Positions 1 to 4,526 of a stretch of DNA of 4,526 nucleotides are shown here, one piece after another. The stretch is from Escherichia phage EC6098. Under the pieces are notes generated by a model, which ran no database searches, was not told where the DNA came from, and saw nothing but the letters and a program-made list of their open reading frames with translations. Numbering within the stretch: the stretch's first letter is position 1; each line of letters opens with the position of its first letter. The stretch lies in sequence record MT185428. One strand, written 5' to 3'. Position numbers and translations under genes: made by a program.

Positions 1-1
1 C

Positions 2-29
2 GTTAAACTAAATATACATTATGCGCACT
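2..29 (-). other. dif-like XerC/XerD recombination motif (candidate attachment site), reverse orientation relative to canonical E. coli dif
   Basis: Plus strand 2-29 is GTTAAACTAAATATACATTATGCGCACT. The reverse complement of E. coli dif (GGTGCGCATAA-TGTATA-TTATGTTAAAT, recalled from memory) is ATTTAACATAATATACATTATGCGCACC. By hand alignment: XerC arm 10/11, central hexamer 6/6, XerD arm 7/11, total 23/28. Confidence 0.5.
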
Positions 30-41
30 AAGGTGCGCATA
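20..41. repeat. Perfect 9-bp inverted repeat TATGCGCAC-(TAAG)-GTGCGCATA; duplicates the XerC-arm-like sequence in inverted orientation
   Basis: Positions 20-28 (TATGCGCAC) are the exact reverse complement of 33-41 (GTGCGCATA), with a 4-nt spacer. The repeat overlaps the dif-like motif and lies just upstream of the Rep ribosome-binding site. Confidence 0.9.
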
Positions 42-62
42 TGCGTATTCTGGAGGTGTGTC

Positions 63-926
63 ATGGCTTGTACCCGTCCTTTGAACGCGTACCAGATGCC
101 ATCGGGGAAGATTTTTTTCACGCCGTCACGTGGCGCTAAATTCATTCAGTTGCCCTGCGGTCAGTGCATCGGTTGCCGTCTTGCTCATTCTCGTGACTGG
201 GCGACCCGCTGCGTTCATGAAGCCCACATGCACGATCACAATTGTTTTATCACCCTGACTTATTCGCCTGAGAATTTACCTGAAGGCGGTACTCTCGTTC
301 GTAAACATTTCACCGATTTTATGAAGCGTTTGCGTAAGGCTTTGGCTGTTGATGATATTTCGATTCGTTTTTTTGGCTGTGGTGAATATGGCTCTAAATT
401 AGAGCGACCGCATTATCACGCGATTATTTTTGGATATGACTTTCCGGATAAGACATTACACAAGGCTGGAAGATTTAATTTATATAGGTCTTCGCTTCTT
501 GAAAGATGTTGGACTTTTGGTTGGTCTGTTGTTGCTGCTTTTAGTTTTGAGTCGGCTGCTTACGTGGCGCGATACTGTGTTAAAAAAGTCACCGGTTCCC
601 GTGCAGATGAGCATTATGGACATCGCATACCCGAGTTTTCGGCTATGAGCAACAGGCCTGGTATTGGCTATGATTTTTTTATGGAATATTACGATGACAT
701 AGTTAATTCAGATGCGTGTATTGGTCGCGGCGGTCGTCAGATAAAACCGCCCCGCTATTATGACAAGTTATTATCAGGCTGTGATTTTGAGAAGTTGCAG
801 CAAAATAAAGAACGCCGACAGTTAAATGCCCAGGTATTAGACCCGTGGCGTTTGCAGGATTTGGATAAATTTAATCTGGTTAAATTCCAGCGAATGATGA
901 GGAAATTAGAAAATGGCTCACTCTGA
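63..926 (+). CDS. VP4: Rolling-circle replication initiation protein (HUH endonuclease, Microviridae VP4 / phiX174 gpA-like)
   Basis: Carries the three rolling-circle motifs: FITLTY (motif 1), HYHAIIFG (HUH motif 2) and YVARYCVKK (motif 3, two tyrosines spaced like the phiX174 gpA catalytic pair, YVAKYVNKK as recalled). Cys-rich N-terminal segment CGQCIGC...C...HEAHMHDHNC. Start chosen at ATG 63 because GGAGG at 52-56 lies 6 nt upstream. The track's ATG at 21 has no Shine-Dalgarno sequence and sits inside the palindrome, so it is less likely. Confidence 0.9.
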   Translation: MACTRPLNAYQMPSGKIFFTPSRGAKFIQLPCGQCIGCRLAHSRDWATRCVHEAHMHDHNCFITLTYSPENLPEGGTLVRKHFTDFMKRLRKALAVDDISIRFFGCGEYGSKLERPHYHAIIFGYDFPDKTLHKAGRFNLYRSSLLERCWTFGWSVVAAFSFESAAYVARYCVKKVTGSRADEHYGHRIPEFSAMSNRPGIGYDFFMEYYDDIVNSDACIGRGGRQIKPPRYYDKLLSGCDFEKLQQNKERRQLNAQVLDPWRLQDLDKFNLVKFQRMMRKLENGSL

Positions 927-1182
927 TGCAGTTTATGTAATTCACGACAAGCTGATTAATGCTGATGTTTTTATGTTTATGGCCCAGCATGACGGTATTG
1001 CGAAAGGACATTTGCACGCGTTTTGTAACCGTATGCAGCGCACTGATTTTTCGTTGCACCGCGTGACTGCTTATGATTTTGCTGACCAGCAGCTGGTTCC
1101 GGTCGATATTGACCGTGTTTATGTTTGTGAAGCTACTCCGGCGTTCCTGAAGGATTCTGAAGATGCGTACATCGAAGCCTAA
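913..1182 (+). CDS. VP5: Small protein downstream of Rep, VP5-like (possible ssDNA synthesis/packaging accessory protein); function not established
   Basis: 89-aa ORF whose start overlaps the Rep stop by 14 nt (ATG 913, Rep stop 924-926). Same strand and syntenic with gokushovirus VP5. Purine-rich GAGGA about 10 nt upstream. Assignment rests on position and size, not on a recognised motif. Confidence 0.55.
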   Translation: MAHSDAVYVIHDKLINADVFMFMAQHDGIAKGHLHAFCNRMQRTDFSLHRVTAYDFADQQLVPVDIDRVYVCEATPAFLKDSEDAYIEA

Positions 1183-1660
1183 GTTCCATACCCGCTATAA
1201 CCCGCCACCGTCGCCCGGCATCGTGTTTGAAGAACCGACGATGACCCAGCAGCATTTTCGCGACGAGTGCGACATTAACAAGATTGTTGAGCGTGCGATA
1301 AGAACGGGAGACACGACAGTCTTTACCAGTGCTCAACGTGCTGAATTCTACGATGCATCCGCGATTACTGATTACGTGGACGCAATGGCTTTAATTGACG
1401 ACGTTCACGACGACTTTAAGAGCCTGCCGTCCACGATTCGCTCGATGTTTGGTAATAACGTTAAACAGTACGTTGAGTGGATGAGTAATCCAGCAAACTG
1501 GAATCAAGCGCGTGAGCTTGGATTGTTGAGCGGCGGAGAGGTTTCGGCGACCGAACCGAAGGTTCGCGAGTCGGAACCTGCTCCGGCGTCCCCGCGGGAG
1601 CGTTCCGGTGCTGAAATGAATAAAGCACCAGATGCAGGTTCCGAACCTGCCAAAACCTGA
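1163..1660 (+). CDS. VP3: Internal scaffolding-like protein (VP3-like), acidic
   Basis: 165-aa ORF immediately upstream of the capsid gene, overlapping the VP5-like ORF by 20 nt. Acidic, D/E-rich core (DECDINKIVERAIRTGD...DYVDAMALIDDVHDDF) resembling gokushovirus VP3 as recalled. The C-terminal 45 aa are Pro/Ser/Glu-rich and probably disordered. Start is uncertain: an in-frame ATG at 1241 (MTQQHF...) is an alternative. Confidence 0.7.
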   Translation: MRTSKPKFHTRYNPPPSPGIVFEEPTMTQQHFRDECDINKIVERAIRTGDTTVFTSAQRAEFYDASAITDYVDAMALIDDVHDDFKSLPSTIRSMFGNNVKQYVEWMSNPANWNQARELGLLSGGEVSATEPKVRESEPAPASPRERSGAEMNKAPDAGSEPAKT

Positions 1661-1680
1661 AGACGGCTCCGGCCCTTCAG

Positions 1681-1717
1681 CCTGGCACAGCGCCCTACTT
1701 GATGTAACTGTGCCAGG
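1681..1717. repeat. Intergenic hairpin: 10-bp perfect inverted repeat (CCTGGCACAG / CTGTGCCAGG) with a 17-nt loop containing ACTTGAT
   Basis: Positions 1681-1690 are the reverse complement of 1708-1717. Loop 1691-1707 is CGCCCTACTTGATGTAA. Lies in the 157-nt VP3-VP1 intergenic region. No T-tract follows, so it is not an intrinsic terminator. Confidence 0.85.
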
Positions 1718-1729
1718 TGACACCGAAAC

Positions 1730-1757
1730 TTACAGGCGGCTCCCACGAAGCCTGTAA
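1730..1757. repeat. Second intergenic hairpin: 8-bp stem (TTACAGGC / GCCTGTAA) with a 12-nt loop
   Basis: Positions 1730-1737 are the reverse complement of 1750-1757. Followed by AAA rather than a T-tract, so not a classical terminator on either strand. Confidence 0.8.
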
Positions 1758-1759
1758 AA

Positions 1760-1817
1760 AGGTGTCAGTTTATACAGTAGTTTGTATAGTATTTAAACAA
1801 TTCCCTGAGGGGGGTTT
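1760..1817 (+). promoter_or_regulatory. AT-rich leader of the capsid gene with a candidate -10 element (TATAGT, 1785-1790) and G-rich Shine-Dalgarno sequence (GAGGGGGG, 1807-1814)
   Basis: TATAGT matches TATAAT at 5/6 and is preceded by TG at 1783-1784. No convincing -35 hexamer at 17-bp spacing. The Shine-Dalgarno core lies 3-7 nt upstream of ATG 1818. Confidence 0.3.
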
Positions 1818-3518
1818 ATGAGTAAATTCGGTCGTAAAGTACCTAGTAATGCAAAAAGTCAGCATAATTTTTCAGTAATCCCGAGTGCCAATATTCAGCG
1901 TTCGGTCTTTAACCGCAGCTCTGGTTATAAAACCACTTTTGACGCTGGTTATTTGATTCCCGTGTTTCTGGATGAGGCTTTGCCGGGTGATACGTTCCAC
2001 CTGAAAACGTCCGTACTGGCGCGTTTATCCACGCCAGTGGTGCCGTTTATGGATAACCTGCGACTGGACATCCAGTATTTTTCCGTGCCCTACCGTCTGG
2101 TCTGGGATAACTGGCAGAAGTTCAACGGTGAGCAGAAGAATCCAGGCGATTCGACGGATTACCTTATCCCGCAGATTAAAGCCCCTGCAGGCGGCTTCCC
2201 TGTAGGCTCCCTTGCCGATTATTTTGGTGTTCCCACAGGTGTGGAGAATATCAGTGTAAGCGCTCTGCCGTTCCGCGCTTATAACCTGATTTATAACGAG
2301 TGGTATCGTGATGAAAACCTGATTAATTCCGCCCCGCTTCCGCTTGGCGATGAGGAAGAAACAGGCCTCGCCAATTTCCCGCTGCGTAAGCGTGCCAAGC
2401 GTCACGATTACTTCACAAGTGCCCTGCCGTGGCCTCAGAAAGGTGAAGGCGTTGAGATTGGTTTAGGCGTTCCGCCGTCGTATACGCTGGAGTACCCTTA
2501 TTACAAGGAAGGTATGGGATTTATTTCGTCTAACTATGGTGCGTCTGGAAATATTGGTCGTACTTTTCCGACGTATATTGCTCGTAGTAGTGTTGGTGAT
2601 GATTCTTCATCTAACATTGGTAATGCTGCTTATTTTTCCGAAGGCCTGGAGAATGGTATTAATTTTCCGAATGCTCCGGCTCGTGGTCGCTATGATGTGC
2701 TTGGTGGTTTTGACCCCAATACACCTCCGGTTACGTTGAAGAAAGAAGGTGGTGAAGTTGTTGATAACCTCACGATTAACTCGCTGCGTCAGGCGTTCCA
2801 GCTTCAGCGGCTGCTTGAGCGTGATGCTCGCGGTGGTACGCGATACATTGAGATTATTCGCAGTCATTTTGGCGTCATTTCTCCTGATGCCCGTGTTCAG
2901 CGTCCTGAGTATCTTGGCTCTGGTTCGTTCGATATAAATATTAATCCCGTTCTTCAAAACTCCGCGACTACCGACGCCAGTCCGCAAGGTAACCTTGCCG
3001 CTTATGGCGTTTCAGGAGGTGTTAACCGTGGTTTTTCTCACTCTTTTGTTGAGCATTGCTTTGTTATTGGCCTTGTCTCCGTTCGAGCAGATTTGACCTA
3101 CCAGCAAGGCATTCCGCGCATGTTCTCCCGTCAGACCCGCTTTGATTTCTACTGGCCTGCACTGGCCCACCTGGGCGAACAGGCTATTCTTAACAAAGAG
3201 ATTTATGCGCAAGGTAACGCCAAGGATGATGAAGTCTTTGGCTACCAGGAACGTTATGCGGAGTACCGCTACCGACCGTCCCAGATTACTGGTAAATTGC
3301 GTTCTACCGACCCGCAATCCCTCGACGTGTGGCATTTAGCCCAGCGGTTCGACTCTCTGCCCGCACTGAATCAGGAGTTTATCGAGGAGAATCCACCGAT
3401 GAAGCGCGTTCTCGCCGTACAGGACGAACCCCAGTTCATCATGGATGCGTTCTTTGACCTGAAGTGTGTGCGGCCTATGCCTGTTTACTCAGTACCAGGT
3501 CTTATTGACCATTTCTAA
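1818..3518 (+). CDS. VP1: Major capsid protein (Microviridae VP1 / F-like)
   Basis: 566-aa ORF with strong Shine-Dalgarno sequence. N-terminus MSKFGRK...FSVIPSANIQRSVFNRS...FDAGYLIPVF and the central block LRQAFQLQRLLERDARGGTRYIEIIRSHFGV are characteristic of Microviridae capsid proteins as recalled. A Gly/Ser/Asn-rich insertion at roughly aa 210-315 is consistent with the gokushovirus surface loop. Confidence 0.95.
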   Translation: MSKFGRKVPSNAKSQHNFSVIPSANIQRSVFNRSSGYKTTFDAGYLIPVFLDEALPGDTFHLKTSVLARLSTPVVPFMDNLRLDIQYFSVPYRLVWDNWQKFNGEQKNPGDSTDYLIPQIKAPAGGFPVGSLADYFGVPTGVENISVSALPFRAYNLIYNEWYRDENLINSAPLPLGDEEETGLANFPLRKRAKRHDYFTSALPWPQKGEGVEIGLGVPPSYTLEYPYYKEGMGFISSNYGASGNIGRTFPTYIARSSVGDDSSSNIGNAAYFSEGLENGINFPNAPARGRYDVLGGFDPNTPPVTLKKEGGEVVDNLTINSLRQAFQLQRLLERDARGGTRYIEIIRSHFGVISPDARVQRPEYLGSGSFDININPVLQNSATTDASPQGNLAAYGVSGGVNRGFSHSFVEHCFVIGLVSVRADLTYQQGIPRMFSRQTRFDFYWPALAHLGEQAILNKEIYAQGNAKDDEVFGYQERYAEYRYRPSQITGKLRSTDPQSLDVWHLAQRFDSLPALNQEFIEENPPMKRVLAVQDEPQFIMDAFFDLKCVRPMPVYSVPGLIDHF

Positions 3519-3535
3519 GTTACATTGTCACTTTT

Positions 3536-3558
3536 GGCCTCTGCGGAGGCCTTTTTTT
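3536..3558 (+). terminator. Rho-independent terminator between the capsid and pilot genes
   Basis: GGCCTC-(TGCG)-GAGGCC forms a perfect 6-bp GC-rich stem (3536-3541 / 3546-3551) with a 4-nt loop, followed by seven T residues (3552-3558). Begins 18 nt after the capsid stop codon (3516-3518). Confidence 0.8.
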
Positions 3559-3572
3559 CATGAGGTGAAATT

Positions 3573-4352
3573 ATGGGCTTTTTATCATCTGCCGTTGGTG
3601 CTGTTGGTTCCATTGCCGGTTCTCTTCTCGGTGCCCACTCTGCCCAGCAGAACGCCGCACAGGCGAACAAGTTAACGATGGATTTGGCCAAAAACGGTAT
3701 GCAGTACCGCGTACAGGATTTGCGAAAAGCTGGTCTTAACCCGATTCTGGCCGTTACTGGTTCCGGTGGTCTTGGTTCCGTCAGTTCGTCAGGTATTCAG
3801 GCCGCCCAGCCTGCCGATTTCTCAGGAGTGGTTAATTCTGCGGTTAGCGTATTTGACGCCTTAACGCGCCGTCAGCAGCAGGAAGTTGCCCGTGAAGGCA
3901 TCATGTCTCAGATTGCGTTACAACGTAACCAGATTGCGAATAGCGCGGCTGATGTGAAGCTTAAAGAGGCTCAGGCTGCCCAGGCTATCCAGAGTGCCGA
4001 TAACATGCGATCGCAGTCGAATCTGATTAATCAGCAGGTTTTGACCGAGGCTTCCCGCCGTGCCAATATTGAATCTCAGACAGGCCTTAATTCTGCACAG
4101 CGGATTAGAACACAGTATCAAACTATGCAGGATAAGGTTATTCATGACTATTTACAGACTGATGCCGGTAAGGCTTCTACGGTAGGTTCTTATGATGCAA
4201 AATCTGGCGGGCTTCCAGCTCTTGGTAATTATATTTTTGGTGCTGGCGCTCGTTTCTTTGGTGATAAAAGTTCTGCGAAAGCGGTAAGCAAGGGGGGACG
4301 CCTCCCCCCTAACCAGTTCCAGCAGCAATTGATTAACAACTATAGGAGGTAA
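3573..4352 (+). CDS. VP2: DNA pilot / minor capsid protein (VP2-like, functional analogue of phiX174 H)
   Basis: 259-aa ORF with Shine-Dalgarno GAGGTG (3562-3567) 5 nt upstream. Gly/Ala/Ser-rich hydrophobic N-terminus (MGFLSSAVGAVGSIAGSLLGA) followed by a long Gln/Ala-rich, probably coiled-coil segment. Sits directly after the capsid gene, as in gokushoviruses. Confidence 0.75.
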   Translation: MGFLSSAVGAVGSIAGSLLGAHSAQQNAAQANKLTMDLAKNGMQYRVQDLRKAGLNPILAVTGSGGLGSVSSSGIQAAQPADFSGVVNSAVSVFDALTRRQQQEVAREGIMSQIALQRNQIANSAADVKLKEAQAAQAIQSADNMRSQSNLINQQVLTEASRRANIESQTGLNSAQRIRTQYQTMQDKVIHDYLQTDAGKASTVGSYDAKSGGLPALGNYIFGAGARFFGDKSSAKAVSKGGRLPPNQFQQQLINNYRR

Positions 4353-4354
4353 TT

Positions 4355-4474
4355 ATGGCTCGTTCTCGCCGTCGTATGTCTAAGCGTTCTTCCCGTCGTT
4401 CGTTCCGTAAGTACGCAAAGACGCATAAACGTAACTTTAAAGCCCGCTCCATGCGTGGCGGCATTCGTCTTTGA
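4355..4474 (+). CDS. Small arginine-rich DNA-binding/packaging protein (phiX174 J-like; gokushovirus small basic ORF)
   Basis: Hand translation gives MARSRRRMSKRSSRRSFRKYAKTHKRNFKARSMRGGIRL (39 aa, roughly 45 percent Arg/Lys), ending at TGA 4472-4474. Consensus AGGAGG at 4344-4349 lies 5 nt upstream of ATG 4355. The start is 2 nt past the VP2 stop codon. Not in the supplied ORF track, presumably because of a length cutoff. Confidence 0.75.
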   Translation: MARSRRRMSKRSSRRSFRKYAKTHKRNFKARSMRGGIRL

Positions 4475-4504
4475 TTGACAAAGTTGATCGTAACGATCTA
4501 TGAT
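4475..4504 (+). promoter_or_regulatory. Candidate sigma70 promoter reading rightward across the window end (toward Rep if the genome is circular)
   Basis: Perfect -35 TTGACA at 4475-4480, an 18-bp spacer, then -10 TATGAT at 4499-4504 (5/6 to TATAAT). Predicted transcription start near 4511. Located immediately after the small basic ORF stop codon. Confidence 0.5.
4486..4498. repeat. Short palindrome GATCG-TAA-CGATC containing two GATC (Dam) sites, within the promoter spacer
   Basis: Positions 4486-4490 (GATCG) are the reverse complement of 4494-4498 (CGATC). Lies between the -35 and -10 elements of the candidate promoter. Confidence 0.6.
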
Positions 4505-4526
4505 AATTATCGTAAGTCGTTGTTTT

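Follow-up and report, generated by a model that had tools for sequence, protein, structure and literature searches.

Does the stretch of 4,526 nucleotides (nt) recorded for Escherichia phage EC6098 (sequence record MT185428; hereafter the window, meaning this whole stretch) hold a complete phage genome, and what would be the function of a hairpin in the spacer between its VP3 and VP1 genes, a structure that recurs in many other gokushoviruses? The window is almost certainly the complete 4,526-nt circular genome of the enterogokushovirus EC6098 (Microviridae, Gokushovirinae; NC_048874.1), a small Escherichia phage with single-stranded DNA, opened just before a dif-like site. The function of the hairpin is a more tentative matter, for which a role in replication is proposed below.

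The identity with the type phage EC6098 rests on an exact, circularly permuted match to contig PTSN01000025 (56.8 kb) of Escherichia marmotae MOD1-EC6098 (GCA_002965865.1; locus L004). By exact sequence comparison, window positions 27-4526 correspond to positions 4210-8709 of L004 and window positions 1-26 to positions 8710-8735, and no mismatch to this contig was found. Since the end of the window joins its start in the integrated copy, the window represents the element closed to a circle, which settles the question of circularity left by a preliminary description made from the letters alone. The same 56.8-kb contig encodes the exact VP1 protein, which can be aligned with chain A of the PDB entry 8DES from residues 1-566 to residues 1-566 (1313 bits), and the window is identical to the IMG/VR record IMGVR_UViG_2974561223_000001. 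In the phage record collection, the nearest match to the whole window was Microvirus mar4, at 86% (megablast). Moreover, supplementary file 1 of Kirchberger and Ochman (2020, eLife 9:e51599; PMC7062461) lists MOD1-EC6098 with GCF_002965865.1, PTSN01000025, the same phage dif motif and prophage clade E, and the accession NC_048874.1 is given for EC6098 in a later paper.

The genome of EC6098 is already known, having been published, revived in the laboratory and its capsid solved by cryo-electron microscopy. For the revival, the EC6098 prophage was amplified and circularised, the phage formed plaques on E. coli K-12 and its tailless, icosahedral virions were seen by electron microscopy; also, the strain MOD1-EC6098 itself sheds plaque-forming phage (PMC7062461). 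The only difference between the published EC6098 and the window is the point where the circle opens. The XerC arm of the dif-like site starts with an A in the window, as it would in a natural excision product, whereas it would start with a G, coming from the reverse primer, in the circle built by polymerase chain reaction in that study. The finding on the genome adds nothing new, and its worth is that of a positive control for reading from sequence alone, where the family, the gene map, the lifestyle and the host were all read correctly.

An identical sequence inside a 56.8-kb bacterial contig, together with relatives in E. coli that were all found to be chromosomal, would also be expected if the window were a mere chromosomal fragment with a decayed, non-viable prophage and no complete phage genome. 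This is highly improbable because the six genes are all intact and because the order of the window differs from that of the chromosome, being that of the circle released by attL x attR recombination. Furthermore, the phage built from the MOD1-EC6098 prophage gave plaques and virions, and so a fragment had already been refuted by the published revival (PMC7062461). The site at which the circle is closed is the following.

2-29, - strand: phage dif-like site (attP), with XerC arm AGTGCGCATAA, spacer TGTATA and degenerate XerD arm TTTAGTTTAAC.

The E. coli-like dif motif that had been reported is present here, with 23/28 positions equal to E. coli dif (the second-best site in the window reaches 17/28 in a scored scan), although its description has to be corrected to five differences, four of them in the XerD arm. 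With five mismatches in the phage site, a search of the window for E. coli dif allowing up to three mismatches consequently gave no match. In the integrated copy, attL (L004 4185-4212; AGTGCGCATAATGTATATTATGTTAAAT) agrees with E. coli dif at 27/28 positions and has A as its first base, and attR (L004 8711-8738; GGTGCGCATAATGTATATTTAGTTTAAC) agrees at 24/28 positions and has G as its first base. Thus, the XerC arm begins with A in both the phage circle and attL and with G in attR, and attP joins an A-type XerC arm with a degenerate XerD arm, as a reciprocal exchange in the shared core predicts. Because the phage half-site has A at this position, attL is a hybrid in which that base is derived from the phage; this upstream site has been described as bacterial, with one difference from the canonical dif (PMC7062461). 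According to the same study, EC6098 lysogenises through the host XerC/XerD, which join its dif-like site to the dif of the chromosome by recombination, carries no integrase of its own and excises continually, with lysogens at 0% in the absence of xerC, of xerD, or of the phage difC, difD or both, and with lysogeny restored by xerC complementation (PMC7062461, Table 1). Scanning of sixteen + strand open reading frames (ORFs) of the window against Pfam and PHROGs gave no integrase or recombinase family. The suggestion of an enterobacterial temperate phage is then borne out by the identical prophage at the dif locus of E. marmotae MOD1-EC6098 and by this XerC/XerD-dependent lysogeny (PMC7062461).

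Six genes, all on the + strand, occupy the window in the order Rep(VP4)-VP5-VP3-VP1-VP2-VP8, with about 93% of the 4,526 nt being coding and with neighbouring ends that overlap by 14 and 20 nt or leave gaps of 2 to 157 nt. This is the arrangement of a complete gokushovirus-like genome that had been read beforehand (Rep-VP5-VP3-VP1-VP2-small basic protein, on one strand and overlapping or near-abutting), and it agrees with the definition of enterogokushoviruses by the order VP4-VP5-VP3-VP1-VP2-VP8 in 4.3-4.7 kb (PMC7062461).

63-926, + strand: VP4 (Rep), rolling-circle initiator (HUH endonuclease), 287 amino acids (aa); PF23343 1.5e-20, phrog_942 1e-113.
913-1182, + strand: VP5-like small non-structural protein; PF20577 5e-4 (below the cut-off), phrog_1670 5e-3.
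1163-1660, + strand: VP3, internal scaffolding protein; PF09675 (Chlamy_scaf) 5e-34, phrog_1642 5e-37.
1818-3518, + strand: VP1, major capsid protein, 566 aa; PF02305 (Phage_F) 4e-185 over residues 19-562, phrog_514 1e-217.
3573-4352, + strand: VP2, minor capsid/DNA pilot protein; phrog_8693 (pilot protein) 8e-20.
4355-4474, + strand: VP8-like arginine-rich basic protein of 39 aa, putatively DNA-binding; phrog_10695 1.6e-10.

Searches with hidden Markov models (HMMs) and BLASTP place the six proteins in Microviridae-type families. Four of the six genes are strongly supported by the HMM matches, whereas the assignments of VP5 and VP8 have weaker support, coming from weak similarity and position: the VP5-like protein matches Chp2 ORF5 with an E value of 0.001, the VP8-like protein matches Chp2 ORF8 with an E value of 1e-4 and shares the C-terminal MRGGIR with it, and the positions of both agree with the published gene map (PMC7062461). 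For VP2, the Pfam scan gave no match, and eleven further PHROG families match it, mostly annotated as pilot or minor tail protein. The HUH and tandem-tyrosine motifs ascribed to Rep are located at residues 117-119 (HYH, nt 411-419) and 167-171 (YVARY, nt 561-575). The Rep gene itself stands at 63-926, but not the start at position 21 that had been given to it. The mechanical ORF extends back to that position, where it would cross the dif site; the ATG at 63 is preceded by GGAGG at 52-56 and coincides with RefSeq and with the other gene calls in L001, L002 and L004, being the most likely start.

The phage shares its host genus with phiX174, and the capsid and Rep families (Phage_F, HUH Rep) are common to all Microviridae, which could accommodate a phiX174-like microvirus (Bullavirinae) instead of a gokushovirus. 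Such an assignment is vanishingly improbable. The window encodes a single internal scaffold, of the kind found in Chlamydia phages (PF09675), and a large VP1 of 566 aa, with the gokushovirus insertion and a full-length match to 8DES. Also, the sixteen + strand ORFs tested gave no match to the D, G, E, K and J families, and the ten of them that are not the annotated genes (each of at least 40 aa) matched no Pfam or PHROGs family, so that none of them can be recognised as an analogue of G, D, E or K; the absence of a spike gene and of E, K or A* analogues had been noted before, and no such families were found among these ORFs. Moreover, at the nucleotide level, near-full-length relatives were found only in Microvirus mar4 and the E. 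coli dif prophages, and a query with the VP3-VP1 hairpin matched gokushovirus-type genomes. The gokushovirus proposed in the preliminary description, rather than a phiX-like phage, is then what the genes indicate.

With the genome identified, the structure that calls for an explanation lies in the 157-nt spacer between VP3 and VP1, which folds better than its shuffles (z = -3.6).

1681-1724, + strand: hairpin CCTGGCACAG-cgccCTACTTGATGTAA-CTGTGCCAGG and TGACACC box, candidate (+)-strand origin.

The stem is a perfect one of 10 base pairs (bp), formed by 1681-1690 with 1708-1717, the loop contains CTACTTGAT, and the TGACACC box follows at 1718-1724. When the whole window was compared by megablast, short matches of 92-96% to unrelated microviruses appeared exactly at the hairpin, in DNA that carries no annotation. 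For example, a 44-nt block, CCTGGCACAG-nnnn-CTACTTGATGTAACTGTGCCAGGTGACACC, is invariant among EC6098, a virus from an Eel River methane seep and a virus from rodent faeces, with flanks that are unalignable. A more sensitive search with a 59-nt query reached 284 phage records, mostly in unannotated DNA, and those listed or tallied by name were all microviruses. On the other hand, when IMG/VR was scanned for the exact pattern of the EC6098 hairpin, only the window itself and one close relative were returned; the hairpin is widespread only if its stems may vary.

This variation is observed in a sample of 80 gokushovirus contigs of IMG/VR (L019-L098), picked by VP1 similarity alone (52-60% identity). 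One hairpin per genome enclosing NCTTG(A/T)T is present in at least 62/80 genomes, on the coding strand in nearly all of them, and the stem sequences vary widely from genome to genome. A stem of at least 8 bp around CTTG[AT]T was found in 55/80 genomes, as compared with 0-7/80 for eleven permuted control motifs. When 71 distinct instances were aligned, 154 cells had changed at both positions of a pair, against 66 +/- 7 in shuffles (0/500 as high), and the covariation score of the stem is 0.354, against 0.06-0.13 when the partners are slid. Also, the distance from the G of CTTG to the start of the (T)GACAC box is 18 or 19 nt in 69 instances, irrespective of stem length. In the window, the box at 1718-1724 pairs with 1761-1767 to give a second hairpin (1718-1767), and in the sample an inverted partner of the TGACAC box, of at least 6 bp, lies downstream in 24/73 cases, with variants that covary.

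The gene directly upstream of the hairpin is VP3 in 59/60 genomes, in both gokushovirus gene orders, namely the EC6098-like VP4-VP5-VP3-[hairpin]-VP1-VP2-VP8 (16/60) and, in most genomes, VP4-VP5-VP1-VP2-VP3-[hairpin]-VP8. With VP3 directly before the hairpin in both orders, the two thus move as a unit, and their staying together places one rearrangement breakpoint at the hairpin.

Some contigs of the sample depart from this picture. A clear hairpin copy on the strand opposite to that of VP1 is seen in L083 (about position 3824, - strand), the clear exception to the orientation described above. L059 (8.3 kb), L069 and L084 (6.2-6.3 kb) exceed the length of a single genome and have repeated genes, with two hairpin copies in L059; these three are probably concatemer or mis-joined assemblies.

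Regarding its function, the hairpin may be the long-missing gokushovirus (+)-strand origin, homologous to that of phiX174 and travelling with VP3, a reading that we consider plausible at somewhat less than an even chance. Replication would proceed by rolling circle and be started by the HUH protein VP4, which would nick the + strand in the hairpin loop at ACTTG/AT (the slash marking the cut), between G1701 and A1702. The TGACACC box located 17 nt downstream (TGACAC at 17-18 nt across gokushoviruses) would act as a second element for recognition, by analogy with the 30-nt phiX174 origin. In this phage, the A protein, a homologue of VP4, cuts CAACTTG/ATA between G4305 and A4306 (rep_origin feature of the record; 2026 preprint). 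In the phiX174 origin, GACCAC begins 18 nt after the cut. The proposal comes from the coincidence of the positions that are invariant among gokushoviruses with those of the phiX174 nick site; that is, the argument lies in which positions gokushoviruses keep and not in an overall similarity to phiX174.

Several observations weigh against this origin. The ungapped 30-nt match to the phiX174 origin is 16/30, and shuffles typically give 17; by chance alone, a 7-mer like ACTTGAT should occur about once per two genomes of this size; and a hairpin on the packaged strand fits a complementary-strand origin equally. The instances used for the covariation analysis were selected for having stems, which inflates the percentage that is paired but not the variety of pair types. 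Also, given the inverted partners found in 24/73 cases, the TGACAC box may act as a structural arm instead of a linear box for recognition, although a box with an inverted partner resembles the nick-plus-bind layout of rolling-circle plasmid origins. Both the nicking by VP4 and the need of the hairpin for replication are inferred from the sequence comparisons.

Under a different function, the hairpin at 1681-1724 would be the complementary (-) strand origin, recognised by host priming proteins, or a transcription or translation signal placed after VP3. The PriA-dependent (-) origin of phiX174 is a hairpin in an intergenic spacer, a hairpin read on the packaged strand suits either origin alike, the second hairpin that follows in the window (1718-1767) and in a subset of relatives recalls multi-hairpin primase origins, and the position is always after the end of a gene, VP3. 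However, the loop and its spacing to the box are conserved among phages that infect Chlamydia, Spiroplasma, Bdellovibrio and Escherichia, hosts with different priming machineries, the shared phage protein being VP4. Moreover, the core of the loop corresponds to the site at which the homologous A protein of phiX174 is known to cut, and the stem has no T run after it, so that it is not a typical intrinsic terminator. A (-) origin or a gene-end signal, although a real rival, is rather unlikely, and the (+) origin nicked by VP4 is the function that we tentatively prefer.

To our knowledge, no gokushovirus other than EC6098 both grows in E. coli K-12 and can be reconstructed from synthetic DNA, which makes the predicted nick site at 1701/1702 directly testable. 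A defined origin would aid the annotation of microviruses, the consistent orientation of thousands of metagenomic genomes and the building of vectors. No description of the hairpin or of a gokushovirus origin was found in the searchable literature; the older papers on SpV4, Chp2 and phiMH2K are outside it and may mention the hairpin.

The comparison with known phages shows how these traits are distributed. Chp2, phiMH2K and SpV4 are lytic phages of intracellular or wall-less bacteria. They have the same protein set as EC6098 (VP1-VP5 and VP8) and the same hairpin design after VP3, with a CTACTTG(A/T)T loop and unrelated stems; the motif scans of these three genomes covered the loop motif only. 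The difference lies in the gene order, which is VP1-VP2-VP3-[hairpin]-VP8-VP4-VP5 in these phages, whereas in EC6098 VP3 and the hairpin are between VP5 and VP1. With phiX174, EC6098 has in common a homologous capsid, a two-tyrosine HUH Rep, the nick-site core ACTTG/AT and a GAC box placed 18 nt downstream of the nick. Nonetheless, the phiX174 origin is inside gene A and outside any hairpin loop, whereas the EC6098 candidate is in the hairpin loop of a spacer, and phiX174 has D, G, E, K, A* and J, which are not recognisable in EC6098 by Pfam or PHROGs.

For the integration, the closest parallel is with integrative mobile elements exploiting Xer (IMEX), e.g., CTXphi, VGJphi and TLCphi of Vibrio cholerae, which are filamentous inoviruses. 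Like EC6098, they have no integrase, carry a dif-like attP in which the XerC arm is conserved and the XerD arm degenerate, and integrate at the host dif. In contrast with these IMEX, EC6098 belongs to the icosahedral microviruses, requires both arms and undergoes continual excision (PMC7062461). The nearest relatives are the dif prophages of E. coli (e.g., in strains C41, E9 and MEI7BO1-21) and Microvirus mar4 (MZ089750, from marmot faeces), with identities of 86-94% over 85-95% of the window. All have the same six genes as EC6098, and their divergence from it is concentrated in the C-terminal part of VP2 and the spacer between VP8 and Rep; mar4 has an extra small ORF and is without an inverted second XerC arm, which in EC6098 forms part of the following palindrome.

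20-41, no strand: perfect 9-bp palindrome TATGCGCAC-taag-GTGCGCATA.

It is formed by the XerC arm and an inverted second copy of this arm, GGTGCGCATAT, at 32-42 (10/11), located 4 nt further on. The palindrome at 20-42 is kept in L001, L002, L004 and L008 and absent from mar4, and could fold in single-stranded DNA.

Three sites resembling transcription signals were recorded outside the main hairpin.

4475-4504, + strand: near-consensus sigma-70 promoter-like site, TTGACA-18-TATGAT, 11/12 (consensus match only).
1762-1790, + strand: weak promoter-like site upstream of VP1, GTGTCA-17-TATAGT, 9/12 (consensus match only).
3536-3558, + strand: intrinsic-terminator-like hairpin GGCCTCtgcgGAGGCC followed by T7, directly after VP1.

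The first of them stands directly after VP8, upstream of the dif site and Rep. The number of promoter-like matches such as that at 1762-1790 is not above that in shuffles. At a permissive threshold, the sole Rfam match in the window was a chance snoRNA (E 0.99).

Rep is also overlapped, in its +1 frame (436-648), by an ORF of 70 codons that encodes a strongly hydrophobic segment, GLLVGLLLLLLVLSRLL. Four close relatives keep this ORF open, and relative to mar4 the changes that are synonymous in Rep are threefold rarer inside it (5/71 codons) than outside (47/216). Its length, however, is ordinary when compared with synonymous-codon shuffles (81 vs 79 expected, p 0.36), and across 72 Rep genes the +1 frame showed no excess. 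As the tests of length and of the 72 Rep genes gave no support, an overprinted lysis gene is not claimed here.

Finally, relatives at 86-94% identity are found in 7/5,426 complete E. coli genomes, always in the chromosome. In the two E. coli prophages inspected (L001 and L002), the element is between a fimbrial operon and hipBA, with dif-like sites on both sides. In MOD1-EC6098, a helix-turn-helix gene and a gene for a 285-aa protein with a SIR2 domain are placed between the prophage and hipA (L004 8853-10489), and the SIR2 gene matches the candidate defence family PDC-S25 (8e-73) over the first half of the profile only. A third dif-like site was looked for beyond this gene in L004 and not found. 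In E. coli C41 and E9, the prophage directly adjoins hipA.

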